Numbered from the stretch's first letter, positions 6,650-64,000 are shown. The stretch is DNA of 64,000 bases from a bacterium (GCA_021790255.1 JAJYIE010000001.1:4165-68164); one strand, 5' to 3'. Notes: generated by a model not told the origin, from the letters alone. A program made the numbers and translations.

Positions 6650-6754
6650 ATTCCTTTAAAAGTATGTGTAGTTTACCAGTATTGTCAAGACCTCCGCTGC
6701 AAACTTATGTAGGCTTGACAAAGCACAGCTTGTTAACATAAAGTAGCAGAAGGC

Positions 6755-32559: not shown

Positions 32560-32649
32560 AAAAATTTTTTAGCAAGAGCTTTAAGATGATAAAGTTGCTA
32601 CAACCTTCGGTTATAAATTGTTATAATTCCAACAGCCAATAAATACAAG

Positions 32650-38189: not shown

Positions 38190-38191
38190 CT

Positions 38192-41128: not shown

Positions 41129-41145
41129 GCTATTGTAATTGTAAC

Positions 41146-44255: not shown

Positions 44256-44258
44256 AGG

Positions 44259-44840
44259 TTACTTTTCTACCATTAAAAATGCTCCCATGGATAAAACAAT
44301 TATTGCCACAGTTTCTACGGCGCTTGCTGTAAACAGGCCGCCTGAGAAATTTAGGAAGATCCGCTTGAGAGCATATTCACCAAGGTAAACCACAGCCAGT
44401 ATCAGCAAGTAAAATATTGCCGCTCCCCATACTTTTCCCTGCACAGCCGTCCGGCTTTCATCTGTTGAGATATAGTTTAAAACACCTTCCCGGGCCAAAT
44501 ACTGCTCAGCCTCCTCACGGGTCTGCTCATTGTGAGCCTTTAATATGTAGGCACAGGCCACACATTGCTCGGATGGGGTGAGTGTGTGTTCAAACCGACG
44601 GACATTTTCCAGGTTGCCCTCCTTTAAGGCCTCATAAAAGTCCGGCAGATGGTTGGAGCAAACTTTTACCGGGATACTCTCTCGCTGCGGCAGACTGATC
44701 ATATTCTTATGCTTTTTAACATACCACGATTGCCGCACAAAGAAAATACCGGCCGGTATATATATAGGATAAACCACGGAGCCCTGACGCAAACTACGCG
44801 ATTTGGTGTCCAGCGAAAGCGGGCTATTCGACAATGTCAT
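44259..44840 (-). CDS. Hypothetical membrane protein.
   Basis: 193 aa with two C-terminal TM helices. Confidence 0.45.
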   Translation of the reverse strand: MTLSNSPLSLDTKSRSLRQGSVVYPIYIPAGIFFVRQSWYVKKHKNMISLPQRESIPVKVCSNHLPDFYEALKEGNLENVRRFEHTLTPSEQCVACAYILKAHNEQTREEAEQYLAREGVLNYISTDESRTAVQGKVWGAAIFYLLILAVVYLGEYALKRIFLNFSGGLFTASAVETVAIIVLSMGAFLMVEK

Positions 44841-45072
44841 TGCAGGGATGATCCGGCTACACTGGAGATAACTCTAAATCTGGCCAGAAGACGAGATGGC
44901 AGGCGGCTTACCGTCATAAATATTACCACAATCAAAGTTTACCCGGGTATTCCGACCTGCTGGCAGTCTTTCACTCCTGTTTCCACCTGGTCCCCACGCG
45001 AACTTGTGCGCAGTCTGACAAAATCTCACCTAGCCATGCCCGGCCACGCTACGCTTTGCATACGCCAAGCCT

Positions 45073-46317: not shown

Positions 46318-47672
46318 TGTTCCTGCTCCGGAATCCACACGCGCCTTTTGATATAGGCCCAGCAAATTACCAGCAAAGTTACCCCGGTAATAGTATAACC
46401 TACCAGAGCAGATGTTCCTGTAAAGTTATCCCGTAGCACCCACAGCGTGCTTTTGTCCACATTATCGAGTAGTTTATTGCTGCTGTATAAGCCGGAAGAT
46501 ATATCTTTTCGCAAGATTATGCTGCCTGCAACCAGTAAGCCTAAAACTAAAGTAATAAGTGGATTGGAAAAAGCCGGCCGATTAAGCTGCGGAATACGGG
46601 TAATTTTTGACTGCTTCATAGAATCAATAAAATATGTTATCCCGAGCCCGAGCAAAAAAGCCAAAGTGAGTCCCAACTCCGGCAGATAGCGGGACGTGCC
46701 GGAAGGCGGGAAACCGCCGGAGCTAATACAATCAATGATTAAAAAGCCAATCGTCCAGAAACTGGCCAGAAAAACTGCCTGCAGGTTGGGCTTGCGGTCA
46801 AACAGTAAAAATCCGAAAGTCCCCAAAACCGGTATGATAAAAAGCGATAAGGGGATCAGGTCAACAATCCCTGTGCGCAACCCGTCTCCAAGCGGCCCGA
46901 AAATCAGCCAAAAAGTGAAAGATGGGTTATACCAAAAAGAGGTTAAAGCTCCCACCAGAAGAAAAAGCGAGGCAAACCGCAGTATTTTTATCCTGCTGCC
47001 TCCGAGGAGCGCTTCTGAAAATGTGGCGAAAATTGCCAGCAAAAAATAAGAAATTGCTCCGGAAGGCGAGATCAGGATAATTGCTGCGCTGAGGGCTGAG
47101 GCGATCACCAGATTTTTCATTCCTCCACGGCGCAAAAAGGCAATCAGGCAAAACAGCGCCAGTGGCATTAAACCCAGGCTTGCTACGTGTGAGCTGTCCC
47201 CGCCCAAAAGTCCTGCCTCTACCCGCCCCTGAAGGAATAAAGTCAAAGGCAGAGTGGCAATAAGCACGGCAAAAAGAGCCGTCAGGATCCGGTTGGTTAA
47301 TAATTTTATTAGGATATAAAGAGAAACCGGCAGGAGGAGGAAGAAAAAAACATTGACCATCTGGGCAGCGTATGAAAAAGGTATTCGGGAAATTGTAGCT
47401 ACAATACTGGCCAGGAACGGGATAAGCGGCCCGGAATAAGTGTTGCTTGGGCTGGCGGTACCCACCAGCGGAGAAAGCAAAAATAAGTTAAGCACACTAA
47501 TCAAAGTTAATGCAGCCAGCTCAACATAACCGCTGCGCCACCAGGCATCAGCAGTAAATAACCCCCCGTCGGCGCTTTCTATCCGCCGCAACAGGCGGTG
47601 GCTGCGGCGGGCAGCAATGGTTGCCTCTGTGGTAGGAATATAATCTAGCTCTGAATCTTCCTGCTTTACCAT
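46314..47672 (-). CDS. Polytopic membrane protein (GT-C/O-antigen-polymerase-like).
   Basis: 452 aa, with ≥10 TM helices. Confidence 0.55.
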   Translation of the reverse strand: MVKQEDSELDYIPTTEATIAARRSHRLLRRIESADGGLFTADAWWRSGYVELAALTLISVLNLFLLSPLVGTASPSNTYSGPLIPFLASIVATISRIPFSYAAQMVNVFFFLLLPVSLYILIKLLTNRILTALFAVLIATLPLTLFLQGRVEAGLLGGDSSHVASLGLMPLALFCLIAFLRRGGMKNLVIASALSAAIILISPSGAISYFLLAIFATFSEALLGGSRIKILRFASLFLLVGALTSFWYNPSFTFWLIFGPLGDGLRTGIVDLIPLSLFIIPVLGTFGFLLFDRKPNLQAVFLASFWTIGFLIIDCISSGGFPPSGTSRYLPELGLTLAFLLGLGITYFIDSMKQSKITRIPQLNRPAFSNPLITLVLGLLVAGSIILRKDISSGLYSSNKLLDNVDKSTLWVLRDNFTGTSALVGYTITGVTLLVICWAYIKRRVWIPEQEQ

Positions 47673-47703
47673 CCTTAACTATTTAATATGATAATCATTT
47701 CAA

Positions 47704-49464
47704 TTACAACAGGTCCTGTTTAACTGTTACCTGCTTTGCTCCTTCTGTTTGAATTACCATCATACCGAAGCCGTCAGTACTGCTTCCGAGCAATTCCCCT
47801 TTTTCTGAATAGGCATGAATGCCAGGGGAAAAGTTTACCAGGAGCAATACACAAGAGCTCCCTTCGCTGGAAATTTCCCAACCCTCAGTTGTTTTTTTAA
47901 CCGGTAAAGGCTTCCCCCAGGCCGAAAGATAGTTTTTTAAAACGGCTCTGTCATTACCTGTTTGAGGATGTTTTATATTCAATATAGCATTTTTATCCAC
48001 TGCCCACGCTAAATTATTACCCTCAAATTCATAGACAGTTTCACCATTACCGCTCCACACAAGTTTTCCCAGCTCATCCCACTTATCCAGATTTTTAAAA
48101 TCGTGGTAGTATTCCGTAGATTTGCTGCCTTCCACCAAAACTGCCCTGACCCCCAAAATTTTCAGCCACATTCCGGCAATATCCGCATCTTTTCCTTCAC
48201 GAATCTGATAAGAAGCCATCGCCCAAACAGGATTTTGTGAAACCTCATCGCGTCCGCCCCGCACCTGATCAAGGCCGTACAGGTTGTCTGCCCAAAATAC
48301 CGGCGTGCCTGACAGGAAAACCCTGCCCTGATCACCAACCAAAAAGTTCAGCGCACTCAAGCCATCAAGACCCGGCGGCAAAATCGGCGATAAAAGCGGC
48401 GGGGTACCCAACGCTGCATAAATTCTGAGCGTCAGCAGCCAGGGCAGATAAAATAACGCTACCGCTCCCCCTATCCCCCTAAAACCTCTAATCTCCTTTG
48501 TCCCTCCTGCCAAAAGCAAAGCTATCCCAACCTCAATTTCAGCGAACCAGCTTGTCCAATCCTGCCAAAAGTCAGGGTTCAAAATCAGCCGGTATACAGT
48601 GAGGATCGCAAAAGTTAAAAGCCAGATTAAGGCAAAACCCATTAAACCACCCTTGCTTTTCCTTCCCAACTTAACCACCCAAATTGCCGCCGCCACAGGC
48701 AAAGCTGCCTTGGCAAAGCCGATTAACTGCCAGATTGCCGTCCAGCCGCTCGCCCCGCCTATTGAAGGGTTACTCAAAATCGTCCACCAAAATTGGGGGG
48801 TATACCAAAAAGTCACCAACACAAAAGCTGATATTAGAACAGGCAAAACATCCTTCAGGCGGTCAACAAAGTTTTCTGTAGTCCCCTGGTTCTCCGTTTT
48901 TTCCCGGCTTGCTGCTGCCCAGGCCAAAGCTGCCGCCCCCACCAGTAAAACCGGTATGACCGAGGTGCTAATAAGCAATGCCAGACTTATAAATAGTGTT
49001 GCCGGAATCGCTCTCAAATAAGTTTTTTGGGTAAAATAATATTCCAGACTGATTAAAGCAAAGGGCACTAAGCTCTCTGCCAATACATTCACCGGGTTGC
49101 TTAAAGCTAAGGCAGATAGGTACTTCCAGGGTAGTGCTAAATATATTGCTCCCGCCGTCATCCCAATCACCCCCGTCTCCCTTACTCCTCTTACCCCCGC
49201 CAGTCTTCCTGCCAGGAGTCCCCAACCGAATGCCTGTACCAAAAAACCGGTTGCTAAAATACCGTAGGTTAGCTCAAAAAAAGACAGCCAGGGGAAAACT
49301 GTCTGCAGGTAAAGCAAAAGCTGTGGCAATACCGGCCCCGCCAAAAATCTGACCGGTACCCCCAAATACCAGTTTGGGTAAATTGCCCACCAGCCGTGGG
49401 CCTGCACAAAGCCGGTCACAGCCAAAACTACCGGGATAAGCGATGTCTGTGGCGGATAAACCAT
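47704..49464 (-). CDS. Polytopic membrane protein with a C-terminal extracytoplasmic domain (GT-C-like).
   Basis: 586 aa, multi-TM, followed by a soluble ~200-aa C-terminus. Confidence 0.55.
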   Translation of the reverse strand: MVYPPQTSLIPVVLAVTGFVQAHGWWAIYPNWYLGVPVRFLAGPVLPQLLLYLQTVFPWLSFFELTYGILATGFLVQAFGWGLLAGRLAGVRGVRETGVIGMTAGAIYLALPWKYLSALALSNPVNVLAESLVPFALISLEYYFTQKTYLRAIPATLFISLALLISTSVIPVLLVGAAALAWAAASREKTENQGTTENFVDRLKDVLPVLISAFVLVTFWYTPQFWWTILSNPSIGGASGWTAIWQLIGFAKAALPVAAAIWVVKLGRKSKGGLMGFALIWLLTFAILTVYRLILNPDFWQDWTSWFAEIEVGIALLLAGGTKEIRGFRGIGGAVALFYLPWLLTLRIYAALGTPPLLSPILPPGLDGLSALNFLVGDQGRVFLSGTPVFWADNLYGLDQVRGGRDEVSQNPVWAMASYQIREGKDADIAGMWLKILGVRAVLVEGSKSTEYYHDFKNLDKWDELGKLVWSGNGETVYEFEGNNLAWAVDKNAILNIKHPQTGNDRAVLKNYLSAWGKPLPVKKTTEGWEISSEGSSCVLLLVNFSPGIHAYSEKGELLGSSTDGFGMMVIQTEGAKQVTVKQDLL

Positions 49465-51780: not shown

Positions 51781-52416
51781 TTATTTTTTGACCTTAAACA
51801 CCACTGCCAGTCCCCAGAAAGCTGTTTTTTCTTCGGTGATAACTAGTCCGACCCTCCGGAGTGAAGTGTCAATACTTTTCCTGCTCAGGCTGTGCAAGTG
51901 GGCTCCCCGCCAAACTTTTCCGGGGCCGAAGCGAATCCACCAAAACCAGCCGGCTTTAAACCGAGCACTCAGGCTGTCCACTGATAAGATCAGATAACCG
52001 TCCGTCTGAAGACAACGGGAAATTTCTGCCAACACCCGCTGCGGATCCAGAACGTGTTCCAGCAGTTCGGTCGCTAAAATTATCCTGAACTGCCCATTCC
52101 GGAATGGTAAATTATGGGCATCAGCCGTGATAAATTTCACCCCCGGGTGTTTCCGCCTGGCAAATTCCACAAAATTCCGGGAGACGTCAATCCCGGTAAC
52201 AGCAGCATCCGGAAAAACTGACTTAACCTTGGCGGTTATTTCACCGGAAGCGCAGCCAACGTCCAGAACGCTGTCGGGTTGGTCCTCCAGCAATCCGCGG
52301 ATTACTTGCCATTTTCTGCCATGCCAGGTCCGCTGGAGCCGATTCTGCCCAATCCCCTTCTCGTAATAATCCGCTGGAGCCTGAGCCCAGATCAGCTTCA
52401 ATTTCTTCTTATCCAT
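51781..52416 (-). CDS. Class I SAM-dependent methyltransferase.
   Basis: 211 aa. VLDVGCASG motif I. Confidence 0.8.
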   Translation of the reverse strand: MDKKKLKLIWAQAPADYYEKGIGQNRLQRTWHGRKWQVIRGLLEDQPDSVLDVGCASGEITAKVKSVFPDAAVTGIDVSRNFVEFARRKHPGVKFITADAHNLPFRNGQFRIILATELLEHVLDPQRVLAEISRCLQTDGYLILSVDSLSARFKAGWFWWIRFGPGKVWRGAHLHSLSRKSIDTSLRRVGLVITEEKTAFWGLAVVFKVKK

Positions 52417-54704
52417 ATCTTGGCCTTAAGCGTGATAACCAGTATTGCTCCGGCCACTCCCGCCAGAGCAAAAATACTGATCCTTACCCCAAAGTAAAAG
52501 CTGTCCGGATCGTAGGTAAAAACCACGCTGTGTTTGCCCTCGGGTACCGGCACTGCCCGGAAAGCATAATCCGCCCGCAGAATTTTAGTTTCCCGACCGT
52601 CTACATAAGCTTTCCAGCCGGGATAGTAAGTATCCGACAGAAAAAGATACCCATTTCCTGAAGCCTGGGTGCTCACATCTATTTTTTGATCCGTGTATTT
52701 TGTAAATAAAGCGGTGGCAGCATAGCCGCCCTGGGCCTTCCATGTCGTATGGTCCACGCTCTTCACCTCAGCAGCGCTCCGGCCGGATAAAGAATCCAGC
52801 CACCCCAGTACCCCGTCAAATACGGAAAGCGGCAAGCTTTTGTCCTCATCATCCACGAAAATTTCATTTTTCGGATCAAAGTCGCCTTTTAAAAGACGGG
52901 CTTTTATATCTGCCGGCGCAGCTTTTTCCGCTTTGGGCACCATAAAAACCCGTGGGAAATAATCTGTAAACTCATAAACGTACACAGGATCCTGACCGTT
53001 TTGAAAATTTACCTGGAAAGCTTTAGTTAACAGGTCGTTTTGTACAGGCTCAGTTAAGAGTACAAATCGCACTCCCATCAGCCTGTTTAGAAAGAGGAAA
53101 GAATCTGAAAGCTTGAGGGTATTTATATCCGGATAGCTTATCCCGTTGTAGAATATCTCATATTCCAACTCATTGTAGCGGTCCAGTTTCAGGCCTCCGG
53201 AATTGGCAATGCCGACATTTTCCGGGATACCGTACATCAAATTGTTAAAAACCGGAAGCAGGTTTCTCAGGTTGATAAAAACATCCGGATCTCCCCAAAG
53301 ATCCGGTTTTTCCAGGAATATTTTTAAGCTCGGATAAAAGTAGTACTCCGTTGTAACCCTTTCCTGATCACTCAACTTCCCCTGCAAAAAAGTGGCTACC
53401 TGCGGCTTTTTGTACCAGCTATTTGTATCAACACTGGGGTGTAAATCCACCGCGGCAATTTTCAGGTTAATAAAACTGAATAAGATCACCGCTCCCGAAA
53501 TACCGAAAACAGCCGCCTTGCTGATTTTAATCTTCTCCAGGCCGCTTTGCAGCTCCTGCATCGAGAAAGCCGCAAGGACCCCCAAAGAAAAGCTCACCAA
53601 AAAGATCAGACGAAATGGGATCCGGAAAAATGAAAACGGCATCAGGGTCAAAATGTACCCAACTGTAAGCTGAGAGCCGAAAGATAAAAGCAACGCTATA
53701 CCGGCTGTTGCCAGAAAAATGTAACTGTAAGGAGTGTACTTTTTCAGCCTTAATAAGGCAAAGGCCGCCAGAACCAGGCCCAGAAGCCCTAGATAAACAT
53801 ACCTTTCATCTGCCGGCCAGCCATTATTTATAAAAGCACTGAAAGTATGGCTCCCATCAAAGGTGGCCTGTGGAGCGATAAAATCCGCAAGGTTGGACAG
53901 GGGAAAAGAATATTGGTTAATTGAAGATGCTGCCAGCCCAGCTGACCTGCTGGAGTGGAGCATCAGTTCTGCTTCCGGCAAGACCTGGACAGCTCCAATA
54001 GCAAAACCGCAGAAGACAAAAAGCGCGAAGTAAGGAATGAAAGAAAAAGTTGCTTCTTTCCTCCGGTACCAAAACAGCATCCAGTAAAAAAACAAGAAAA
54101 TCAGGCTGTAAAAGATAACCTGGGGATGGCCGCCTAGAAGCGACAACCCCAGCAAAACCCCCATTAAAAGTACCCAAATTGCTTCTTTCTTCTTCCCCTG
54201 CAGAAAAACTTCCAGAAAATAGAGCTGGCCTACGAAAAGGTAGAAGGAAACCACCATCGGAAAACGGACCAGTTCACCCACAGCAAAACCTGAAAAAGTA
54301 ATAATCGAGGCGCCGAAAAACGCTGGAAAGGCAAACAGGCGGATCTTTGATAAATATAAAAAGCTGAGCAGAAAAAGAAAAAAGAAGCTACAGACCAGTG
54401 TTATATTGATTGAGGTGGTAGTATCGAAGTATGCTGCCAGCAGATTTAACGGATAGAGAGCTCCAATTTGCCCATCAGCAAAAAGGGGGAAACCACTGCT
54501 TATAGCAGAAGACCAAAGTGGCAGCTGCCCCTCTCTGAGAGACTGCGAGAGAAAATAACGGAAGGGGTAATGCAAATCCGTCAGCTCATTGGTTCCAACA
54601 TTAGGGGTAATATTGACCGCCCCCCTCAGATTGCCGATCAGGAAAAACACCACTAAAGCCAGACCGGCTAAAACTGACGCCAGCAGGCTAAGCCTCTTTT
54701 TCAT
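52398..54704 (-). CDS. YfhO-family membrane protein (second paralog).
   Basis: GGHPQVIFY. C-terminal SDTYYPGWKAYVDGRETKILRADYAFRAV...TYDPDSF followed by a TM helix. Confidence 0.8.
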   Translation of the reverse strand: MKKRLSLLASVLAGLALVVFFLIGNLRGAVNITPNVGTNELTDLHYPFRYFLSQSLREGQLPLWSSAISSGFPLFADGQIGALYPLNLLAAYFDTTTSINITLVCSFFFLFLLSFLYLSKIRLFAFPAFFGASIITFSGFAVGELVRFPMVVSFYLFVGQLYFLEVFLQGKKKEAIWVLLMGVLLGLSLLGGHPQVIFYSLIFLFFYWMLFWYRRKEATFSFIPYFALFVFCGFAIGAVQVLPEAELMLHSSRSAGLAASSINQYSFPLSNLADFIAPQATFDGSHTFSAFINNGWPADERYVYLGLLGLVLAAFALLRLKKYTPYSYIFLATAGIALLLSFGSQLTVGYILTLMPFSFFRIPFRLIFLVSFSLGVLAAFSMQELQSGLEKIKISKAAVFGISGAVILFSFINLKIAAVDLHPSVDTNSWYKKPQVATFLQGKLSDQERVTTEYYFYPSLKIFLEKPDLWGDPDVFINLRNLLPVFNNLMYGIPENVGIANSGGLKLDRYNELEYEIFYNGISYPDINTLKLSDSFLFLNRLMGVRFVLLTEPVQNDLLTKAFQVNFQNGQDPVYVYEFTDYFPRVFMVPKAEKAAPADIKARLLKGDFDPKNEIFVDDEDKSLPLSVFDGVLGWLDSLSGRSAAEVKSVDHTTWKAQGGYAATALFTKYTDQKIDVSTQASGNGYLFLSDTYYPGWKAYVDGRETKILRADYAFRAVPVPEGKHSVVFTYDPDSFYFGVRISIFALAGVAGAILVITLKAKIWIRRN

Positions 54705-56974
54705 TTGGCCGTTTTCTCCACTGCAGCGGAGGGGCTGGCTAAGTTATCCGTCTGAGCCGCTGTTTCCCCTGTTTGCTTAGAGGACTTATCCTGCAGATCA
54801 GAAATCATACTCTGGGCTTCCTGGGCCAGTTCCCCGTCACCGCTTCCTAAGACTGACAGATAATCCTGCAAATAATTTATGGCGCTCGCGTAATCCGGCG
54901 GTTTCTTCTCGTACCCATAAATTCTTCCCAAACCTGCCAGTGCTTCCTTAAAATAAGGGTCAATCTGAAGCACCCGCTTATATTGGGTAATGGCATCATC
55001 ATATAGTTTCACCTGTTCAAAAACATACCCCAGATTATAGAAATGACGGCTGTAGTAAAAGATAATTAATCCTTCAAAGAGCGGGGCATCCCTTTTTATT
55101 CTGGCAAACGATGCTAAATCCAGGCTGTTCCAGAATTTGTCGTTTTCTGCCCGGTAATCCTCCAGCTTCAGGCTCTTTCCGGACTTCAAAACCAAAAAGA
55201 GCATATTTTTCGGCCAGAGGGTATATTTTTGCTCAAGCTCAGGGTCATGAACCACCAAGTCCGGGTTAACATAAATGGGGCGTCTACCGTAGTTTGCATT
55301 AACCAATTGAGTAGTAGATGTGAACACTTTCCCGGGTTTAGGCGTCGGAATGACTAAATCAGGGTAGCGTGCTTTCAGTTGCGGGATAAACCAGGCGAGG
55401 TGGAACTGGCCGGGCGAAAAAGTAACCATGTGATCTTTTCCTTTCTGCTGCACGTAGCGGAAATAGTCCATGGTCATGCCGGCAATATCACCCGACTGCA
55501 ACACCAGGGCGTTATCCGGAAGACCGGCGTAAGCTGCTTGCGTATAATCAATTGTCGCTGTCCCCGCCCGGCCGTTGGCACGGTCGAAATTTATAAGGAA
55601 AGGGGTGACAAAAGAGGTTATAAGCAGCACTTTGCCGATGGCCAGTCCGAATCTCTGATCAGCGGAGCCACTCAGAATTTTATTCTTAATCGAGAATACC
55701 CCGTCTGCTTGCAGCGAGGATGAATCAATCACAGAAGAACCTGCCCGGGGGGAAACCTCGCCAGCTTTGCTGCGAGGTAGTTCATTAAATAATTTATATA
55801 TCATCAGCAGTCCGAATGCTATAAAAAGAGTAACAAAAATGTTCGGCAGCATAAAAAACCGTGCCGCTGTTGCCTGGCTGAAATCATCTCCCAGAGGGAA
55901 ATCGGCGTAAGCAAGAAAAAGAAAGCCGCTTACAAAAAAACCCGTGCTGATAAAAATAAGTATCCGGTGAAAGGCAAGGGGCCTCCCCCGCCCCTCCTTC
56001 CACAGATAGAAAATACCGGCCACAGCAAAGATTGCCCCGATGATCGAAAAATCAAGGACAATATATTTCAAGTAAAACCAGGCCTCCTCAAACACAGACG
56101 GCGCGCCGCTGGTATCCGATCCGGCCAGGTAGGCAGAAAAAGTCCCGAAGTCCTGGCGGGTTAGGGCGCTTATCGCATCCGGAATAGTTTTTATACCCCC
56201 CCAATTAAGCGGCGGGTTTTTTGAGGCAATAAAGATCAGCAAAAATACATACGGCAGAATCCCCACTAAAAAAGCCGGAATTATCAAAGCGGCCCTGGAC
56301 GGGCTCTTGAAGATATTTACTACCGGGGTTGTTAAAAGCAGAAAAAATACCGCCGGGAAAACCAACACCGCTGTTTCATGATGTGAGAAGGCAAATCCGG
56401 ACAAAACCGCCAAAATCAGCAGCATTTTTAAAGAGCTTAGAAAGGAAATGGTTGGCGCCGATTTAAACTTCCGGCAAATCCGCACCGTGATAAACAGGAT
56501 ACTTACTACAAAAAAGTTGTTTAGGGGAAACACTTCAAATTTAGTGGCATACTGCCAAAAAACAGTGTTAAAAGCTAAAAACATGCCGGCGGTAAATGCA
56601 ACCAGATAGTAGCCAGTTTCCGGGTCCTTATCCAGCCCGGAGTCCGGCAACCGGCGAGAGTCTGAGTCAGCGAGCCTGAAAAGATCCAGCACCAGAAAAT
56701 AAAACACGAGCACGCTCAAAGCTTGAAGGAGCGCGGAAACCGCATTAATCCGCTCAATCGGGTTAAGCGGCAGCGGCAGTTCGTAAGCAATATGGCCCAA
56801 AAGCGTATTGACCGGGTAGCTTGGTTGGTGCGGTACTCCCAGCACCACGGCGGCAGTGACCATTTCAGTACTATCTCCGGCAGATATGGAGGGCGATAAA
56901 GTAAAAATATAGACGCAAAAAGGTATTAAAAAGGCCAAAAGGGCAACCAGTTGTTTAAAAATAATTTTTTTCAT
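54701..56974 (-). CDS. DUF2723/TMTC-like polytopic membrane protein with C-terminal TPR repeats.
   Basis: N-terminal SAGDSTEMV motif region. About 11 TM helices. TPR-like repeats (YDDAITQYKRVLQIDPYFKEALAGLGRIY). Confidence 0.65.
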   Translation of the reverse strand: MKKIIFKQLVALLAFLIPFCVYIFTLSPSISAGDSTEMVTAAVVLGVPHQPSYPVNTLLGHIAYELPLPLNPIERINAVSALLQALSVLVFYFLVLDLFRLADSDSRRLPDSGLDKDPETGYYLVAFTAGMFLAFNTVFWQYATKFEVFPLNNFFVVSILFITVRICRKFKSAPTISFLSSLKMLLILAVLSGFAFSHHETAVLVFPAVFFLLLTTPVVNIFKSPSRAALIIPAFLVGILPYVFLLIFIASKNPPLNWGGIKTIPDAISALTRQDFGTFSAYLAGSDTSGAPSVFEEAWFYLKYIVLDFSIIGAIFAVAGIFYLWKEGRGRPLAFHRILIFISTGFFVSGFLFLAYADFPLGDDFSQATAARFFMLPNIFVTLFIAFGLLMIYKLFNELPRSKAGEVSPRAGSSVIDSSSLQADGVFSIKNKILSGSADQRFGLAIGKVLLITSFVTPFLINFDRANGRAGTATIDYTQAAYAGLPDNALVLQSGDIAGMTMDYFRYVQQKGKDHMVTFSPGQFHLAWFIPQLKARYPDLVIPTPKPGKVFTSTTQLVNANYGRRPIYVNPDLVVHDPELEQKYTLWPKNMLFLVLKSGKSLKLEDYRAENDKFWNSLDLASFARIKRDAPLFEGLIIFYYSRHFYNLGYVFEQVKLYDDAITQYKRVLQIDPYFKEALAGLGRIYGYEKKPPDYASAINYLQDYLSVLGSGDGELAQEAQSMISDLQDKSSKQTGETAAQTDNLASPSAAVEKTAK

Positions 56975-56981
56975 ATAAGTT

Positions 56982-59900
56982 TTACCCGCTTCCCGGGCCC
57001 GACCTGAAATTGTTTTTAGCGGTTTTCAGTAAATTTATCTTATGCGTCGAGCCTCTCCCTCTTTTTCCCTGGGTTTTTCTTCTAACAAACAGGGGGATTA
57101 GGACACCCAAGGACAGCAGATAGACGAGCCTTTCCGGAATAATAATATAGTTCCAGTTTAAAGTATACGGAGAGGATGTGCCTGAGGTCCACTCGGCAAA
57201 GACCCTTCCTGAGGCAGGCAGACTGGCAGTAAGGTAACGGGGAGTGGTGCCTGTCGTCCAGCCTGTTGAGGCCTCTTTGGTCCCCCATGATCCTGAGAAG
57301 TAGCGGGAATAATAAATTGCCGGAGTGGCGCTTTTAATATACAGAACATAAATATCTCCGTTGGCAGTATCCGAGGTGATACTTACAGATGACATCCCGC
57401 CTGTTGAGTCAACTCTGGTAGGTGAAGCGTCCCATGAAGTGCCGTTGTATTTTTTATACTGGACATAACCTGAGGAGTCAATGTAAGCAAGATGGGTATT
57501 ATAACTTGAGTCAAAGGTTGTCGAGATACCGTTGGCAAAGCCTGTCTGGCCGGTAGCAATACTGTCCAGCGTTTGCCAACCGGATCCGGAAATCCACTTC
57601 TTGCCTTCAATTGCTGTCCCGCGAATCCAGGTAGCGTAAATATTGCCTGAGGCAGCAGGTTCCAGGGCCCCGTAAAGGTTGGGGTCGGTATTTGTGCCTG
57701 AAGAAAGTGAAACGGCTGCGTTCCAGCTCGAGGGATTCTGGATACTGGTTGACTGGACGCCATACATGGCAATATAGCGGCCGCCGGTCGTGCTGTATGA
57801 TTGACCCAAGACCCAAAGGTAACCGTTGGTGTCCTGGCCGATATACGCCAGATGGTATAAAGAAGACGAGGAACCAGTCAAGGCAACATAGCCCGAAGCA
57901 TCCCAGCTGATATTGGTGGCAGAAACCGTGCCGCGCCTGACCATAATGCTGTATGAGTTGGCCCCGGTTGTTTCAAAATAGGCAATATATATATAGGAAG
58001 AAGAGTAGTCTTTAAAGACTGAAAAATCAGCTGTGTTTTCCGCCAAAGGTGAAATAGCCGTCCAGCCGGTATTCCAGGGAGAGGCGCTGTATTCAATCTT
58101 AATATCCAGGCCGGTGCTGTCATACGAGAAGCGCCAGTAAGATCCGCCGGTGGCATCATAAAAAGTTTTTCTCTGGAAAGAGTAAGCAGTAATCCCGCCG
58201 TCTGCCGCCCCGCCGCAGGTATCAGAGGTAATAACCCAGTTACTATTGTCTCCCGAGTCGGATGAATCAATTGCCCCAATCCGCGCTATATTATTTGAGT
58301 CTTTAATGTCGGCAAACCTGACGGCTCCCGTTGCCGAGACATTTAAAGCATACTGGCTGCCTGCTAAATCTGAATACAGCTTGACTTTACTGCTGCAGGC
58401 TCCCCCGCTCGCTGTAAGCGTCCCCGTCACATTCGTCTGGTGAAGATGGTCAAAGTCAACCTCCTTTGAGGCGGTAGAAACGGTTAGGTTATAAAAGCTG
58501 GTGGCAACAGAGTATGTAAGAACCGATGCCCCGGCTCCGTTGAATGTAACCGTGCCGGAGTTGGCGGTAAAAGTGCCGTTATTGGTAAAGTTGCCGGAGA
58601 TGGTAAAACCAGCAGAGCCGGAGGCAGAGAAGGTATGGCCGGAGCCGATCGTCAAGTTGCCGGTGATATTTATGGCAGGATTGTTAGTGCTTGCATTGAC
58701 GGTTAAAGTCCCTGCTCCTGAAGTAGTAAAATTCCCGTTAACAGTCAGTGTACCGCTGTTTAAATAATAAATTTGTGTGCCTGAGGCCGGAGCAAAACTT
58801 AAAGCATTATAAGTTGTAGCCTCAATATCAGAGGCAGATGTGCCGGTAAAGGTGGTAGTTGCGGGGGCAGTAAATGTCCCTCCGTTAATATAAAGGGGCC
58901 GGGATGTTGTTTGTCCTGAACCGGTTAAAGTTAATGTTTCTGTTGACCCGGAATATGTTCCCCCTGTAACAATATGGAGTTCTGGTGTGGTTACATTTGT
59001 TCCGGGAGCGTATGATCCCATTACGTGCAGCTCTGATCCTGAAACAGTTAAATTATTGCTTCCATCACAGGTAAAAAGGTTATCCCCTGAGGGAGGATAA
59101 GTGGAAAAAGAGCATATATTGGCATTTGTTGTAGAGGAGGAGTTATTGTTGGTAACAGCCAGCCTTCCTATGTATAAGTTGAGGTTGGAGATGGTAGCAG
59201 CGCCAAAAATGGTAGTTGTGTTGGCATTATTTGTGGCTCCGGAAATATAAACCATCACTTTGGCTCCGGCCGCGGCAGTTATGCCTGAGAAAGTAAATGT
59301 GCTTTGACCTGCAGAAACAGTTGTGGTGGTTGGAGCAGCGTTATTGACGGACAAAGCTACGGTATAACCTGTGGTATCAGGGGTCGTCTCGTCAGATTGG
59401 TAAATAGTCCCGCCGATTGAAGGGTACGGGGTAAACGGCGACCCGGTAATTGTCACGCCGGTATCGTAGTTCAGGTAACCGTCAGCCTGGAAGATTTTGT
59501 AGGAGTAAGTAGTCCCATTAGTGACAGTCGTATCAGTGCAGTTGACAGCCGTGGAGTAAGCATCGGTTGTTCTCACACAGGCCACAGTTGCACTGCCGAT
59601 GGTATTCCCGGCGCTGTAACTTGAGCCTTCTGCCGGGACATCAGATCCGGGGGTCGAGGCGGTCCAGCGCAGGAGCACCGACTGGGAAAAGTCGGTGCTT
59701 GAAGAGGTGGTCCAGTTGATGGTCACGGAGTTGCCCCCAACCGACCCCGAAGTTGAGGTAGCCCCGTTGGGTGAGAGGTTGTCAATTGTGACGGTAGCTG
59801 AGGCACCGTCGCTACCAGCATGGGCATTAGTGGAAGTAAAAGCGGTGACTGTCCCTGTTATGGCGTACGATCCCCCCGGAGGAGCAGGCATGGCTGAGGC

Positions 59901-62900
59901 GGATTTGGGGGTGATGCGCACTTTGAAGGTGGTAAGGGTGGTTGTCACAGCGATGTTGCAGCCGGTAAAGCTTAAAGTTGTCGAGGCGGGGTTGGTAATG
60001 GAGGTGCACTGGGCGGTGTTGGAGGTGTCGGTAATATCCGCCTGGCCGATACCGGTGTAGGAGTTTAAGGTCACCGTTAGGGCAGTTACCGTATCGGTCG
60101 CGGCGGAAGTTTGCAGAGTAAAAGCATCCAAATCGGTGGCAGCCCCACCCGGGCCGATGGTGACATTGGAGGGATTTGTCCCGTCCCCTAAGGTAGTGGT
60201 TTTGGGGTCAAGTGCCAATTGCCAGGGGTGAAGCTCAGTAAAAATAACCTGTCCTTTCTCAGAAACCCTGGACGGGCCTAAAGCATACAAAGCCGGGGAG
60301 ATTTTTGGGGCCTGATAAGTATAACTTAAGGTTGCGCTCTTCCCCGCCGCTAGGTTAATATTCCAGTCAATCTTCTGATCGGTCATCCCTGCTCCATTAT
60401 TTTGGATTCCTGCCTGCGCAGAAATGACGGAAGATGCAGAAGCGGGAGAAACGGATTTGATGACAAAGCCTGCAGGAACCGCCTCTTCTACCACTCCGTT
60501 GGTAATCCGCCGGGCGGCTGTTACCTTCATAGTCATGGTGTAAGCGGACAGGAAAGGATTGATTCTGGTAGCCCCGACTCTTTGAATAGCCAGCGGATCA
60601 CCACTCCTCACCACAAAAAAGGATGAGGCGTCAGCTCCGTTGTCGGTGTTGGTCAGCTGAATGTCATATTGTCCGGCGGAGAAGGTTGAAATATAGGCAA
60701 AATAGTCCGGCGAATTGGTAAAATTATCCGGCCCGCATGTTGGTGATGTCCGAACCCCGGGGTGCAAAACTACCCCCTCAGGAGTTGTAACAGTCAGAGT
60801 CAGGTTAGAGGTGCAGAGGGTGTGTCCGTTATTATCTAACGAGGCCATCTGAATATAGGCGCTTTCCCCTGATACATAAACTGTCTTGTCAGTATTTATG
60901 GCCAAGACTCCCCACAAAAAGTCCTGGCTCATAACCTTGCCTGATGAACCGGTGATTTGCAGTGTCATTTTTCCCGGGTGGGTACCCTGAGGAAAGTTTA
61001 GCTGCAGGCTGTGACTGCTTCCGTTTGTCTGGGCGCTGCTTGAAAAGTTGACCTTTTCGCCAAAGGAGTCCAAAACCGTAAAGCGGTAGAAGGAGGCTGC
61101 GTGACCACCCAGGTTGATATTTACGGATTCCCCTGCCTGGTATGCTTTCTTCGGCAAGGCAAAGGTCGGATCAAAGAACGAGTTTATTGCCGGGGTTGGA
61201 GTGGTGGTTGGGGCCAGAGTAACTGCCGCTGCCGGGGTATCGCTATACACTACCCACGGGTTTCCTTCCTCAAAAACGCTCACCAATTGCGCTTGTGGTG
61301 CCGTCAGCTCCTGCGCCAAGACCCGGGTCGCTCCAATCTCCCCAATACCCCCAACCTGAACGTGTGATAGTGTTTGCAGTATTGCGTGATAGATTGATGT
61401 AGTGATGGAAGTAATTTCGTTGATAACCCCTGCAAACAAATTACCACCTGAAGTTACCGGTTGTAATCCGGACACCGCTTTGCTGCCGTTTGCAAGGTAA
61501 GCTTGAAATGCAGGAGATGCTGTCGCCGAAGCTCCCAATATCTGAGCTGATGGTGTGGCAGAAACCGTTGATTCTGTTAACTTGTTACTGCGAGCCGAAG
61601 GCAGAGTGGGGGTGGGCGTTATCTCTTTTTCCTGCTGAATTATAAGCGGTCCGAATGAATAATCAACCGGCGAGGCAGCAGAGGTTTGGAAAATGTATGA
61701 AAACCCCGCTGCCTTACCTCCCTTTAAATTAACTGTCCAGGTTAAGGTAGCCGAACCGTCTAAATTGGGAGTTTGAGTAAGTCCGGTGGAAGGCTGGACA
61801 CTCGCCACGCTCACCCCCGCAGGTACAGTTTCTTTTACCAAACCCGTGAAGTCATCTACGGTGGTGAGGGTAAACTTCATCCGCTGGTCCCCGTCTTTGG
61901 AATAGATCCTGACAGGAGCCTGTCTTGTGACGGTAAACTGCGGCTTAACCTCAGTTTTGATATATGAGGTAATAGCCGCATTTGTATCAGTATTTATCAG
62001 TGTGATAGTGTATGTACCTACCTCGGATAAGGTGAAGGCTGAGGTGTAATCAGGGTTTTGCGGTGTCTGGCCAGCCCGGCAGTTGTGAACTTGCATTATG
62101 GCCGGTTTTAATGTTAGGCCCGACGGCGTGGTAATGGTTAAAGCAAGGTTTGCATCGCACAAAAGGTGGCCCGAATCTCCGGTTGCTTCCATATAGAGAC
62201 TGGCCCTTTCCCCTACTTTGTACAAAGAGGAGCTGCTGTTTAGCGCCAAAGTCCCCCAGCTAAACGGCAGGGAAATTACTTTTCCTCCTGTGTCAGTTAA
62301 GCTAAGGGTATATTTTCCGGGGACAAACGTTCCTTTTTGGGTAATAACTAAAACATCAGACCCTGTACCATCTTCTTCGCTTATTACAACCGGCACAACC
62401 TCCCCGTTGTAACTGGTTAGTTTTACACCCAGATGGTCCAGGTGAGACGAGCCGATGTTCACCTTCACCACCTCTTCTGCCTTAAGGCTTGTCTTCTCTA
62501 AACTCATCTGACCGGTTAGATCTGATGGTTGGTTGAGCCCCGAAAACTTGCCGCTTAAAAAATCCTTCAGTGATAGAACAGGAGAGAGAATAGCGGGCAG
62601 GGAGCCGGAAGAGGTCGAAGATGGGGATGAAGAGGCAGAAGGCGCTACAGTGGGAGTGGGTCCCGGAGCAGGGGTAGGAACAATTGTTGGTGCAGGCATT
62701 GTGGTTGGCGTGGGTGTGTTGTCACCAGCGGAGGAAGCGGCAGCGACAACTCCGGAATCTGATACTGAAGGCCGGGATGATGATGCTGCAGGTGTGGGCG
62801 TGGGGGTAACTGATATAGTTTGAGCACTTTGGCTAGCCTCAGATGAGGTATTTTGCAAGATTTGGGATGAACCACTTTGCACAGCGCCAGGGGCAAGAAG

Positions 62901-64000
62901 TACACCTGATGATGTGCCCTGGGCATAAGCCGGAGCAGGGCTAAAGTATGGAGCATAGGGGGCCAAAGATAGAACGGTATTGGTTACGAGCAGGAGCATG
63001 GCAAGAAATGCTTTTGATGCATAGCGCCAGCCGCGCCTTGGCAGGGCAAATGAATCAAAGCGTGAGTTTGCAGATGTCAGGGCGAGGTAGGGTGTGGCGG
63101 AACTGTTAGCAGACAGACTGAATGCCGCCCTGGAACCTGAGAAAATCCCTGACACAAGACGGTAAAACGTTCCCCTGGTAAATACATCCGTGACCCTTCC
63201 TGTTTTGGGTGTCCTGAACCACCCACCCTCTTTTTCTTCGGTAAACCCTTTGACGGCAGCATAAGCCTGGAATGGCACGATTAGGTAACATAGAACAACA
63301 AATGAGGCAATTCCAAGGTAATCTTTTTCCTCTGACTCTTCCAGAAAAAGCCCGACGATATTTACAAGGGGAAGGGATAACATATTTGTGAGAACCAGCG
63401 ACCAGCCCCAAAGAGATGTCCAGAAAGGAAGCCTGACCTGGAAAGCCACCTCAGCCAAAAGCCAGGAAAAAGTCCCCAAAAGAAAGAAGAAGGCCTGAAG
63501 ATAATACGGGGCAAGGTATACTGTTTCAAACTTTTCTGCTCCGGTTAAGTTTTGGGAAACAAGAAGTTTTCTGAGCATCAGCTTAATATTAAAAGAGTGC
63601 CCCTCCGCCCATCGCATCCTCTGTCTGATAAGCCTCTTGAATGTTGACACACACTCTGCGGGAGCCTGAATGTATGGAGTGTAAACTACTTTATAGCCCG
63701 CCTCATAAAGGCGCAGGGTCAACTCAAAATCTTCAGTAATGGACGACCCCCAGCCCACCTTCTGCAGCGGATCTTTGCGGATCATATACACTGAGCCTGA
63801 GATCATCTTCAGCCCCCCGTAAAGCTCAGTTCCGGCACGCTCGATAACATAAGATCCTGCATACTCGGTTCTTATCCCTCTGGTAATCCAGTTTTCTGAT
63901 TTGTTTAAAACATGCCACTGGTATCCCTGAACTGCTGCAACTTTGGAGCTGGTGTAATCTTCTGATCCGTTATTTTGTACTTTGAAATACTTTAAGAAGA
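56982..64000 (-). CDS. Giant fusion protein, partial (N-terminus beyond the window end). A GT2 processive glycosyltransferase catalytic/TM module is fused to a ~2,000-aa Ser/Thr-rich extracellular multi-domain region with a C-terminal TM anchor.
   Basis: The 2274-aa ORF is extended manually in frame to position 63998 (FLKYFKVQNNGSEDYTSS...). It carries the GT2 ITEDFE and QRMRW (QxxRW) motifs, then ~5 TM helices. Next comes a PT-rich linker and two paralogous ~300-aa modules. After that is an NxT/GxT-rich beta-helix-like repeat region and a Y/W-rich blade-like repeat region. The sequence ends with LVYLLSLGVLIPLFV followed by RRK. Confidence 0.8.
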   Translation of the reverse strand, partial: FLKYFKVQNNGSEDYTSSKVAAVQGYQWHVLNKSENWITRGIRTEYAGSYVIERAGTELYGGLKMISGSVYMIRKDPLQKVGWGSSITEDFELTLRLYEAGYKVVYTPYIQAPAECVSTFKRLIRQRMRWAEGHSFNIKLMLRKLLVSQNLTGAEKFETVYLAPYYLQAFFFLLGTFSWLLAEVAFQVRLPFWTSLWGWSLVLTNMLSLPLVNIVGLFLEESEEKDYLGIASFVVLCYLIVPFQAYAAVKGFTEEKEGGWFRTPKTGRVTDVFTRGTFYRLVSGIFSGSRAAFSLSANSSATPYLALTSANSRFDSFALPRRGWRYASKAFLAMLLLVTNTVLSLAPYAPYFSPAPAYAQGTSSGVLLAPGAVQSGSSQILQNTSSEASQSAQTISVTPTPTPAASSSRPSVSDSGVVAAASSAGDNTPTPTTMPAPTIVPTPAPGPTPTVAPSASSSPSSTSSGSLPAILSPVLSLKDFLSGKFSGLNQPSDLTGQMSLEKTSLKAEEVVKVNIGSSHLDHLGVKLTSYNGEVVPVVISEEDGTGSDVLVITQKGTFVPGKYTLSLTDTGGKVISLPFSWGTLALNSSSSLYKVGERASLYMEATGDSGHLLCDANLALTITTPSGLTLKPAIMQVHNCRAGQTPQNPDYTSAFTLSEVGTYTITLINTDTNAAITSYIKTEVKPQFTVTRQAPVRIYSKDGDQRMKFTLTTVDDFTGLVKETVPAGVSVASVQPSTGLTQTPNLDGSATLTWTVNLKGGKAAGFSYIFQTSAASPVDYSFGPLIIQQEKEITPTPTLPSARSNKLTESTVSATPSAQILGASATASPAFQAYLANGSKAVSGLQPVTSGGNLFAGVINEITSITTSIYHAILQTLSHVQVGGIGEIGATRVLAQELTAPQAQLVSVFEEGNPWVVYSDTPAAAVTLAPTTTPTPAINSFFDPTFALPKKAYQAGESVNINLGGHAASFYRFTVLDSFGEKVNFSSSAQTNGSSHSLQLNFPQGTHPGKMTLQITGSSGKVMSQDFLWGVLAINTDKTVYVSGESAYIQMASLDNNGHTLCTSNLTLTVTTPEGVVLHPGVRTSPTCGPDNFTNSPDYFAYISTFSAGQYDIQLTNTDNGADASSFFVVRSGDPLAIQRVGATRINPFLSAYTMTMKVTAARRITNGVVEEAVPAGFVIKSVSPASASSVISAQAGIQNNGAGMTDQKIDWNINLAAGKSATLSYTYQAPKISPALYALGPSRVSEKGQVIFTELHPWQLALDPKTTTLGDGTNPSNVTIGPGGAATDLDAFTLQTSAATDTVTALTVTLNSYTGIGQADITDTSNTAQCTSITNPASTTLSFTGCNIAVTTTLTTFKVRITPKSASAMPAPPGGSYAITGTVTAFTSTNAHAGSDGASATVTIDNLSPNGATSTSGSVGGNSVTINWTTSSSTDFSQSVLLRWTASTPGSDVPAEGSSYSAGNTIGSATVACVRTTDAYSTAVNCTDTTVTNGTTYSYKIFQADGYLNYDTGVTITGSPFTPYPSIGGTIYQSDETTPDTTGYTVALSVNNAAPTTTTVSAGQSTFTFSGITAAAGAKVMVYISGATNNANTTTIFGAATISNLNLYIGRLAVTNNNSSSTTNANICSFSTYPPSGDNLFTCDGSNNLTVSGSELHVMGSYAPGTNVTTPELHIVTGGTYSGSTETLTLTGSGQTTSRPLYINGGTFTAPATTTFTGTSASDIEATTYNALSFAPASGTQIYYLNSGTLTVNGNFTTSGAGTLTVNASTNNPAINITGNLTIGSGHTFSASGSAGFTISGNFTNNGTFTANSGTVTFNGAGASVLTYSVATSFYNLTVSTASKEVDFDHLHQTNVTGTLTASGGACSSKVKLYSDLAGSQYALNVSATGAVRFADIKDSNNIARIGAIDSSDSGDNSNWVITSDTCGGAADGGITAYSFQRKTFYDATGGSYWRFSYDSTGLDIKIEYSASPWNTGWTAISPLAENTADFSVFKDYSSSYIYIAYFETTGANSYSIMVRRGTVSATNISWDASGYVALTGSSSSLYHLAYIGQDTNGYLWVLGQSYSTTGGRYIAMYGVQSTSIQNPSSWNAAVSLSSGTNTDPNLYGALEPAASGNIYATWIRGTAIEGKKWISGSGWQTLDSIATGQTGFANGISTTFDSSYNTHLAYIDSSGYVQYKKYNGTSWDASPTRVDSTGGMSSVSITSDTANGDIYVLYIKSATPAIYYSRYFSGSWGTKEASTGWTTGTTPRYLTASLPASGRVFAEWTSGTSSPYTLNWNYIIIPERLVYLLSLGVLIPLFVRRKTQGKRGRGSTHKINLLKTAKNNFRSGPGSG

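Follow-up and report, generated by a model that had tools for sequence, protein, structure and literature searches.

A predicted polysaccharide synthase fused to a variable ectodomain and a PEP-CTERM-like sorting signal in Patescibacteria

What kind of protein begins as a membrane glycosyltransferase and then runs on, in the same frame, into an extracellular region of 1,935 aa? The question is raised by a 64,000-nt stretch of bacterial DNA (GCA_021790255.1 JAJYIE010000001.1:4165-68164), the whole of which we call the window, and whose end is occupied by the 3' part of a giant gene on the minus strand. An earlier reading made from the sequence alone (the sequence-only reading) had described a glycosyltransferase family 2 (GT2) synthase core fused to a Ser/Thr-rich extracellular region. 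Based on sequence, structure and family analyses, our preferred interpretation, to which we give a probability of roughly 0.55, is that the gene encodes a polysaccharide synthase joined to a glycan-binding surface protein that is sorted by an exosortase and probably glycosylated. This figure is a compromise between two others: we are highly confident of the anatomy of the protein and of its family assignment, and we put the full mechanism of synthesis, sorting and glycosylation at slightly less than even odds.

Reading frame and synthase core

The listing of open reading frames (ORFs) in the window includes a minus-strand ORF at 56982..63806, 2274 aa long when counted from an internal ATG. Translated over 56982-63998, the frame comprises 2,338 codons, in which the sole stop is the terminal one, and stays open to the window end; an open frame of this length is not due to chance ((61/64)^2338 ~ e^-112). 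The translation matches P0001, a 2,866-aa protein from a 70.6-kb NCBI contig, with 100% identity over 100% of its length. Both the frame and this identity agree with the earlier view that the ORF is open and that its N-terminus lies outside the window, and the 528 missing residues could be read from P0001. The window holds the 3' 82% of the P0001 gene. Residue numbers throughout are those of P0001, with the first base of residue r at window position 63998-3(r-529) on the minus strand. Among GTDB representative genomes, the closest match to the window protein has 53% identity. A second assembly, GCA_027334485.1 (L001, a 6.6-kb contig), is 99.985% identical to window 52361-58967 and ends inside the giant gene, missing the synthase/ectodomain junction. 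Exact-word scans of JGI metagenomes for the missing 5' end and upstream region returned nothing, or merely other paralogues (86% over 100 bp). The gene and its synthase part are laid out as follows, TM standing for transmembrane, HTH for helix-turn-helix and AF2 for AlphaFold2:

56982..64000, minus strand: visible 3' part of the giant gene (aa 529-2866; stop codon at 56982-56984)
Beyond 64000, minus strand: first 528 codons, encoding two HTH units, TM helices 1-2 and the first half of the GT2 domain
63513..63998, minus strand: C-terminal half of the GT2 catalytic domain (aa 529-690; Pfam PF13632/PF13641/PF13506, BcsA sequence and fold matches)
63240..63542, minus strand: interface/TM helices after QxxRW (aa 681-781), putative half of a glycan channel (hydropathy, AF2, Foldseek)
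63198..63221, minus strand: WFRTPKTG (aa 788-795), gating-loop-like (W788-K793 and G795 invariant in an alignment of 32 relatives)
62943..63029, minus strand: last synthase TM helix (aa 852-880), signal-anchor-like (hydropathy, AF2)

Several GT2 families of Pfam score above their cut-offs in P0001. The two hallmarks named in the sequence-only reading were located, ITEDFE at window 63723-63740 (TED at aa 616-618) and QRMRW at 63609-63623 (aa 654-658), and TM helices do follow them, at aa 681-781 and 852-880. Two further motifs lie outside the window, DDS at aa 441-443 and DAD at aa 516-518. DDS, DxD, TED, QRMRW and the WFRTPK loop are all invariant in the 32 aligned relatives, which argues for an active enzyme, as predicted from sequence. 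An AF2 model of aa 1-895, built from the 32-sequence alignment, has a mean predicted local distance difference test score (pLDDT) of 76, with the GT2 domain above 90. In the model the core comprises 2 + 5 long helices, those within aa 681-781 being at 681-694, 696-713, 721-747 and 755-781, and pLDDT is low at aa 791-801, as expected for a mobile loop. Gating-loop motifs of characterized synthases are FxVTxK in BcsA and WGTR in hyaluronan synthases (HAS) and chitin synthases. WFRTPKTG is presumably the counterpart of FxVTxK, with the T, the K and an aromatic residue kept, although the motif is not identical. A QxxRW motif, a gating loop and a multi-helix TM domain are together hallmarks of processive, channel-forming synthases, unlike GtrB/CsbB-type enzymes.

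The earlier likening of the core to cellulose, chitin and hyaluronan synthases is borne out by structure comparison. Foldseek searches of the PDB with the core model returned BcsA (9b8v_E, 1e-14; 4p00), HAS (8sne), PcManGT (TMt 0.73), chitin synthases and CesA. The alignments to BcsA, HAS and chitin synthases extend over 600-760 columns with probability 1.0 and E down to 1e-14. By sequence, the best PDB matches are the BcsA proteins of E. coli and Rhodobacter (E = 2e-9 and 1.6e-6), and among NCBIfam models PgaC/IcaA (1e-22) and CelA (9e-21) come closest, each scoring far under its cut-off. The protein is not BcsA proper, the c-di-GMP-regulated cellulose synthase: P0001 has no PilZ domain (Pfam, E <= 1), and the BcsA equivalog models score far under cut-off (TIGR03030, 73.5 bits against 699; NF008558, 45 against 992). 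What the core shares with BcsA, HAS, chitin synthase-NodC and PgaC-IcaA is a GT-A domain with D, DxD, TED and QxxRW, helices after QxxRW and, at the place of the gating loop, a motif containing T and K. It differs from them in its 17-19% identity, the N-terminal double HTH and the additional ~1,940 aa of extracellular domains and sorting signal at the C-terminus. Unlike BcsA and its kin, its TM/gating region is matched by just 374 clusters in 1.84 billion. By likeness, the core appears to be a processive-type, channel-forming membrane GT2 and the orthologue of no named synthase.

The N-terminal part of P0001, which lies outside the window, begins with two tandem HTH units of transposase type (aa 1-260; Pfam HTH_28, HTH_23, HTH_Tnp_1 and HTH_7), modelled by AF2 at pLDDT 85-95 and followed by a disordered linker and TM1-2 (aa 294-359). 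The units score 86 bits with the IS481 transposase model NF033577 (cut-off 224), matching its profile positions 2-112 only. P0001 has no DDE (rve) catalytic domain (Pfam and curated models), which rules out an IS481/IS3 transposase identity for the giant protein. Elsewhere in the family, P0092 and P0097 have a MerR/HTH_17 domain instead of the IS-type HTH, and P0049, P0059 and P0069 are members without any HTH.

A family with a predicted C-terminal sorting signal and a putative dedicated partner

The whole-protein search yielded 248 matches. Among the best 120, almost all are 1,300-3,700 aa long with HTH and GT2 Pfam content, and just 12-18% of the query, corresponding to the core, is common to most of them. 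Named sources among these 120 are Woese-, Davies-, Curtiss-, Roizman- and Chisholmbacteria, Microgenomates and "Patescibacteria group". An HMMER search with the TM/gating region (aa 660-900), exhaustive over 1.84 billion representatives clustered at 50% identity, found 374 clusters at E <= 1e-3 and 297 at E <= 1e-30, a sharp family boundary. GTDB representative genomes hold at least 254 relatives, and the named ones are nearly all Woese-, Davies-, Curtiss-, Gottesman- or Chisholmbacteria or Microgenomates. The family is essentially confined to Patescibacteria and comprises ~300-370 clusters at 50% identity. Several metagenome-assembled genomes (MAGs) bearing family genes (e.g. L011-L013, L017 and L031) are titled "uncultured Gammaproteobacteria bacterium" or "Candidatus Bathyarchaeia archaeon"; their gene content makes them look like mislabelled Patescibacteria bins.

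The search for orthologous fusions that the sequence-only reading had proposed thus turned up the same architecture in hundreds of independent assemblies. That reading had also allowed that the architecture might be an ordinary one, already described. It is common in databases, where members are annotated as "glycosyltransferase", "hypothetical protein" or "cellulose synthase-like glycosyltransferase/transposase"; no describing paper was found, and no curated family in Pfam, NCBIfam or the CTERM models covers the combined architecture. We found no publication on these fusions, or on exosortases or archaeosortases in Patescibacteria/candidate phyla radiation (CPR), in a literature search that mostly did not cover subscription journals, so that this absence is not proof. 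The parts are all of known kinds (processive GT2, HTH, MG/Ig, propeller lectin and exosortase-type signal), and their combination appears to be undescribed.

Family genes frequently stand side by side as tandem arrays of 2-3 paralogues, with three members each in L002 (OY970314.1) and L003 (CP065002.1) and further arrays in L004 and L080/L082 (Ga0307378_10000830). In one 1.27-Mb genome, three paralogues together take up ~22 kb. Across the family, the stretch past the gating-loop motif, which contains the last TM helix as well as the ectodomain, varies in length between ~300 and ~3,400 aa. Two paralogues of L003, P0005 and P0008, share 49.5% identity in the core and 78-83% in distal ectodomain segments, a mosaic pattern that suggests recombination or cassette exchange between paralogues.

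What these divergent proteins share, besides the core, is their C-terminus, which in the giant protein reads as follows:

57048..57137, minus strand: sorting signal, consisting of IIIPE-R, the TM helix LVYLLSLGVLIPLFV and the basic cluster RRKTQGKRGRG (family consensus)
56985..57047, minus strand: additional 21-aa hydrophilic tail after the basic cluster (THKINLLKTAKNNFRSGPGSG), not conserved

Hydropathy places the TM helix at aa ~2819-2831. The consensus [V/I/L]-P-E-[N/K/R]-x-[L/W]-LLL-P-L-A-P-F-L-P-K-..-K/R-rich ends 99 of the best 120 of the 248 homologues, and most of those lacking it end at contig edges. It is found in 54 of the 62 3'-complete ORFs of related loci, is confined to family members within ~1.2 Mb of such loci, and is shared across ectodomains that are otherwise unrelated. 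PEP-CTERM and PEF-CTERM signals have the same build, in which a PE-type motif directly precedes a TM helix and a basic cluster comes after it (PMC1569441; 10.1101/2023.06.07.544157). The sequence-only reading had noted a C-terminal TM helix and an RRK-rich tail; both are present, and judged by their sequence they would be more than an anchor, forming a predicted PEP-CTERM-like sorting signal that is kept family-wide.

The enzyme that might act on this signal is found beside the relatives' genes. On three long contigs, a gene for a ~190-aa polytopic protein comes after most family genes. Six of six such proteins tested pass the exosortase/archaeosortase signature TIGR04178 (32-41 bits, cut-off 23), and none reaches the cut-off of a named subfamily. 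A profile built from them finds 56 copies in related loci, at least 90% of which keep the Cys (WNCxGWQS), the Arg and the His of H-D-Y. Downstream sequence of 1.5 kb or more is available for 54 family genes, and a mini-exosortase gene follows on the same strand in 41 of these cases, within 300 bp in 28 and often overlapping the family gene. In L004, a Y1-type (IS200/IS605-like) transposase gene (7483-8136) separates a family gene (3,807 aa) from its mini-exosortase, indicating that mobile elements insert within family arrays.

Dedicated one-to-one sorting systems are known in which the genes are consecutive and the motif abuts the TM helix (10.1101/2023.06.07.544157), and the pairing of family gene and exosortase fits these one-to-one systems of Haft (10.1101/2023.06.07.544157; PMC1569441). 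With PEP-CTERM/exosortase and PEF-/PGF-CTERM/archaeosortase systems, the family shares the order of PE motif, TM helix and basic cluster, the association with polysaccharide genes and, in the relatives, a cognate enzyme that passes TIGR04178 with Cys, Arg and His kept. It differs in its motif, which is [V/I]PE-[N/K/R] rather than PEP and is missed by curated models, and in pairing one gene with one enzyme rather than many with one. Its enzyme is a ~190-aa mini form, under every named Xrt/Art subfamily cut-off, and its substrate is itself a glycan synthase, without an N-terminal signal peptide. The Patescibacterium that hosts the gene, an ultra-small bacterium, probably has no outer membrane.

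Another parallel is the XrtG locus of Gram-positives, which is composed of the small exosortase XrtG, a TIGR03111 GT2 and a PTPS-related membrane protein. The family loci resemble it in combining a small exosortase with a BcsA-like GT2 and a membrane protein of PTPS_related type; there are weak matches to TIGR03110 and TIGR03111 as well as PF10131-like neighbours, and all scores are far under the cut-offs of the XrtG system. In contrast to XrtG loci, the family GT2 itself has the sorting signal, a giant ectodomain and HTH modules.

Ectodomain, neighbouring genes and upstream element

Between the last synthase helix and the sorting signal, the ectodomain is divided as follows:

62505..62942, minus strand: P/T/S-rich low-complexity linker (aa 881-1026; S+T 40% and P 16% over aa 901-1000)
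61593..62504, minus strand: module A (aa 1027-1330), Ig/filamin-like beta-sandwich (weak Filamin match; paralogue of module B)
60213..61160, minus strand: module B (aa 1475-1790), MG2 (alpha-2-macroglobulin-type) domain then an Ig-like domain (PF01835, 37.2 bits, cut-off 32.8)
58191..60212, minus strand: T/N/G-rich region (aa 1791-2464; AF2 pLDDT 25-65, mostly below 50-65)
57138..58190, minus strand: C-terminal 6-7-bladed beta-propeller (aa 2465-2815), lectin-like (AF2 and Foldseek)

Most of the layout proposed in the sequence-only reading is recovered. The composition of aa 901-1000 agrees with a PT-rich linker, and the two tandem modules are indeed paralogous (29% identity over 372 aa, E = 1e-46). 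Module A is common to about 30 of 119 relatives. Module B also matches bMG10, GBS104_Ig and DUF11 below threshold (Pfam). An alpha-2-macroglobulin identity was ruled out by the missing thioester, the ectodomain having no CxEQ thioester motif and no match to the A2M or TED domains (Pfam). The long repeat region had been read as a parallel beta-helix, and this part was not confirmed: aa 1791-2464 have no Pfam match, low pLDDT and a weak ~30-aa periodicity (z = 3.7 by autocorrelation). The region is possibly a beta-solenoid stalk; one relative, P0012, has a Beta_helix domain (PF13229).

The Y/W-rich blade-like repeats noted earlier correspond to a confidently modelled all-beta domain (pLDDT 80-95, ~26 strands) that opens with a conserved AYSFQRKTFYD and is best matched by beta-propeller lectins. 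Foldseek against the PDB places first the seven-bladed Photorhabdus PLL/PHL lectins (E = 3.5e-11, TMt ~0.7 over ~370 columns), followed by fucose lectins and sialidases. The fold is alike, whereas identity to PLL/PHL is 12-14% and the propeller is here one domain of a membrane-anchored giant protein. The alignment behind the model is shallow, a homologue search with the propeller alone having given 4 proteins; the domain occurs in ~15 of 119 relatives. A lectin-like propeller makes a glycan-binding role plausible for part of the ectodomain, as a prediction from its fold.

Downstream of the giant gene, the window continues with three tightly spaced genes:

54701..56974, minus strand: downstream gene 1, TMEM260-like/DUF2723, glycosyltransferase of GT-C type, putative protein O-glycosyltransferase with C-terminal tetratricopeptide repeats (TPR) (PF11028, 96.7 bits)
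52398..54704, minus strand: downstream gene 2, YfhO-family GT-C membrane glycosyltransferase (PF09586; 4-bp overlap)
51781..52416, minus strand: downstream gene 3, class I S-adenosylmethionine methyltransferase (PF08241, 80 bits; 19-bp overlap)

Gene 1 lies 7 bp past the giant gene, and the same protein is encoded in GCA_027334485.1; a DUF2723 homologue also follows P0003 in L002. The C-terminus of the YfhO protein weakly resembles PgfM1/M2 (NF047590/NF047589, far under cut-offs). The 7-bp gap and the 4-bp and 19-bp overlaps make an operon running from the giant gene plausible. The DUF2723-TPR, YfhO and methyltransferase genes of the operon proposed earlier are all present, but this context is not a feature of the family. 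A promoter and terminator scan of the operon in the window found sites no commoner than in shuffled sequence.

The genes conserved alongside the family are instead those for the exosortase and for a polytopic membrane protein of ~460-600 aa, together with a MerR-like gene in divergent orientation. Two membrane proteins of the window have homologues in family loci:

47704..49464, minus strand: 586-aa polytopic membrane protein with faint PTPS_related similarity
46314..47672, minus strand: 452-aa PTPS_related-like membrane protein (homologues in 17 related loci)

Homologues of the former, ~460-600 aa long, are found in 32 related loci, where they either directly precede the family gene or come right after the mini-exosortase. 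A GT4 gene recurs in 13 related loci. Small MerR/HTH_17-like genes are present in 35 loci, and they usually adjoin the family gene on its upstream side and point away from it, for example:

L002:23672-23983, minus strand: MerR/HTH_17-like gene
L003:8749-9054, minus strand: MerR/HTH_17-like gene
L003:3223-3828, minus strand: MerR/HTH_17-like gene

A composite element, CTTGACA-N5-TAyCCA-N6-TGTTAACAT, with a -35/-10 spacing of 19 nt, precedes family genes in many species, ~30-250 bp ahead of the starts in L005, L007, L012-L015, L017, L020, L021, L025/L002, L027, L030-L032, L044, L046, L065, L076 and L079. Close to family gene starts (no farther than 260 bp), TGTTAACA reaches 1.13/kb, a 57-fold enrichment over the 0.02/kb of the remaining locus sequence, and a second GTGTTAACAC palindrome often lies near or at the start codon. 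The window itself holds a single, differently spaced copy of the element at 6731, upstream of an ORF at 6755-7471 (plus strand). Spacers of 19 bp are typical of MerR-regulated promoters, and this spacing together with the upstream MerR-like genes suggests MerR-type control.

Downstream of the giant gene, a large envelope-glycan gene cluster occupies window 30561-49464, with a second YfhO gene beside it:

30561-31799: GT2
31705-32559: methyltransferase
38192-41173, 46314-47672 and 47704-49464: three PTPS_related-like polytopic proteins
42597-44255: PMT_2-like protein
45073-46365: GT4
49524-51761, plus strand: second YfhO

Three ORFs in this stretch (33597-35093, 36723-38189 and 41146-42600) are Cys-rich, with radical-SAM-like motifs (e.g. 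CxxxCxxC) as judged by eye. Farther along, 19021-21153 (plus strand) encodes a Wzy_C/O-antigen-ligase-like membrane protein with C-terminal TPR, another envelope enzyme of GT-C/TPR type.

Readings of the fusion and what they would mean

In the reading we prefer, the GT2 core would polymerize a sugar (a beta-glycan) from nucleotide-sugar on the cytoplasmic face and thread the chain through its own TM channel, and the last core TM helix would export the ectodomain. The ~190-aa exosortase-family cysteine enzyme would probably cleave the signal at PE, at the membrane surface, and re-anchor the ectodomain to a lipid or glycan, and the TMEM260-like and YfhO GT-C enzymes would probably O-glycosylate the S/T-rich ectodomain. 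The net product may be a variable protein-polysaccharide surface coat or adhesin of an episymbiotic cell.

Several observations weigh against this reading. Its functional steps (polymer synthesis, exosortase cleavage, the nature of the new anchor, glycosylation and the adhesive role) are all ones that we infer. The 5' end and promoter of the gene lie beyond the window end at 64000, and the 64 kb of this locus hold no exosortase-family gene (tblastn; profile search with filters off, best E = 1.9), so that processing of this particular protein would depend on a gene outside the window, beyond 64000 or elsewhere in the genome, if one is present at all; 13 of the 54 related genes likewise have no downstream exosortase. 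No curated PEP-CTERM or PEF-CTERM model matches the giant protein's signal, which is without the third Pro and is followed by a 21-aa tail, and six family C-termini compared with curated sorting-signal models (E <= 10) gave one marginal PEP-CTERM match and nothing else. Foldseek TM-scores to BcsA are low (0.33-0.35), partly since the query includes the HTH modules and loops. The DUF2723/YfhO context is not conserved in the family, with homologues in 4 and 1 related loci, respectively. Finally, the protein has no N-terminal signal peptide, its N-terminus being the cytoplasmic HTH and GT2 parts, and an uncleaved ectodomain would stay tethered to the synthase at its N-terminal end, unlike known exosortase substrates.

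One variant is compatible with our preferred reading, and we regard it as possible although on balance unlikely. The protein would be a polyprotein, cut by signal peptidase I past the last synthase helix to free a secreted protein with the PEP-CTERM-like signal, and the fusion would serve solely for one-to-one co-expression and co-localization with the HTH-GT2 part. Known exosortase substrates do have an N-terminal signal peptide (PMC1569441), and the last TM helix is shaped like a three-part signal peptide, with a basic n-region (RRGWRYASK), a hydrophobic core and then PAPAYA|QG (62916-62939), a possible signal-peptidase-I site by its sequence. Among 197 relatives, the n-region has a net charge averaging +4 and of at least +3 in 91%; an AxA lies at most 30 aa past the hydrophobic core in 43% of them (control windows, 17%), and [AVS]x[AS] past the core in 87% (controls, 70%). 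Yet these enrichments are modest, the c-region is long (~10-20 aa) relative to that of usual signal peptides, and the positive-inside rule alone predicts positive charge before a TM helix.

A less probable arrangement, to which we would give about one chance in five, is a BcsA-BcsB-like loop. The C-terminal helix would then be a permanent anchor packing on the synthase TM domain, with the ectodomain arching over the channel exit to guide or bind the glycan. In the BcsA-BcsB complex, the C-terminal helix of BcsB packs against the TM domain of BcsA, and AcsAB is a natural BcsA-BcsB fusion of Komagataeibacter. Both resemble the family in combining a synthase, a large extracytoplasmic glycan-handling region and a single C-terminal TM anchor. 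The topology fits, from the GT2 core through the extracellular region to a single C-terminal TM helix and basic cytoplasmic tail; the lectin-like propeller stands directly before that helix, which is conserved with the core whatever the ectodomain, and the absence of an exosortase from the window is also as expected. Identity as a BcsB fusion was nevertheless ruled out, P0001 having no similarity to BcsB (PF03170; Pfam, E <= 1), and the paralogue ectodomains of the family, in contrast to these systems, are hypervariable. The family's C-terminal helix also differs in having the PE motif and, in relatives, an exosortase partner: an invariant PE at the membrane boundary and an adjacent intact exosortase gene in 41 of 54 relatives argue for enzymatic processing. 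The propeller, moreover, is present in a minority of relatives.

Still less probable, in our estimate, is that the core is no polymer synthase at all. The GT2 would then make a lipid-linked sugar or glycosylate protein, and the cluster would O-glycosylate the enzyme's own ectodomain, as in the "self-glycosylating adhesin" that the sequence-only reading had offered as one option. An S+T content of 27% in the ectodomain, GT-C enzymes directly downstream and the weak likeness of the YfhO C-terminus to the adhesin-glycosylation enzymes PgfM1/M2 are consistent with this, as is the good structural match to PcManGT, a non-polymerizing minimal form of the cellulose-synthase fold. The invariant QxxRW, the gating-loop-like motif and a multi-helix TM domain that aligns with BcsA and HAS over 600-760 columns argue for polymerization instead, and the DUF2723 and YfhO neighbours are absent from most family loci.

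The weakest alternative, that separate GT2 and ectodomain genes were joined by an assembly or frameshift error in the MAG, is barely credible: the second assembly does stop short of the junction, but the frame is unbroken over 7 kb with even GC content across the giant-gene region, the same junction plus an MG2 module is found in P0003, P0009 and P0023, the C-terminal signal is confined to proteins having the GT2 core, and the fusion recurs across NCBI, JGI, ENA and Logan assemblies, including the closed chromosomes CP011214.1, CP065002.1 and OY970314.1, so that the architecture cannot have arisen by chimeric assembly. The fusion that had been called unusual is thus real; it is no one-off.

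One bolder version of the synthase and sorting reading, which we consider improbable, is a "proteoglycan factory": the synthase would extrude a glycan while the mini-exosortase cuts the PE signal of the same polypeptide and transfers the ectodomain to the nascent glycan or to a lipid primer. If this were true, the exosortase would be a protein-to-polysaccharide transpeptidase, and this would be the first exosortase system with an acceptor readable from gene architecture. The tandem mosaic paralogues, the shared MerR-type promoter and the membrane-tethered HTH would then give switchable surface variation for host attachment.

Exosortases and PEP-CTERM proteins have been tied to exopolysaccharide loci since 2006, and what their substrates are attached to remains an open question (PMC1569441; 10.1101/2023.06.07.544157). 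With a glycan synthase and an exosortase substrate in one polypeptide, and its one-to-one enzyme adjacent, the family offers a minimal two-gene system in which this chemistry is directly testable. That an exosortase substrate should itself be a polysaccharide synthase would surprise specialists in envelope biogenesis or CPR bacteria, since the fusion physically links polysaccharide synthesis to protein sorting. The fusion of a DNA-binding domain to a membrane polysaccharide synthase may in addition reveal a new coupling between envelope synthesis and gene regulation. Patescibacteria have tiny genomes and live attached to host cells. As a major, variable, multi-copy surface-protein family in these bacteria, the fusion family is a strong candidate for a role in host recognition or attachment.

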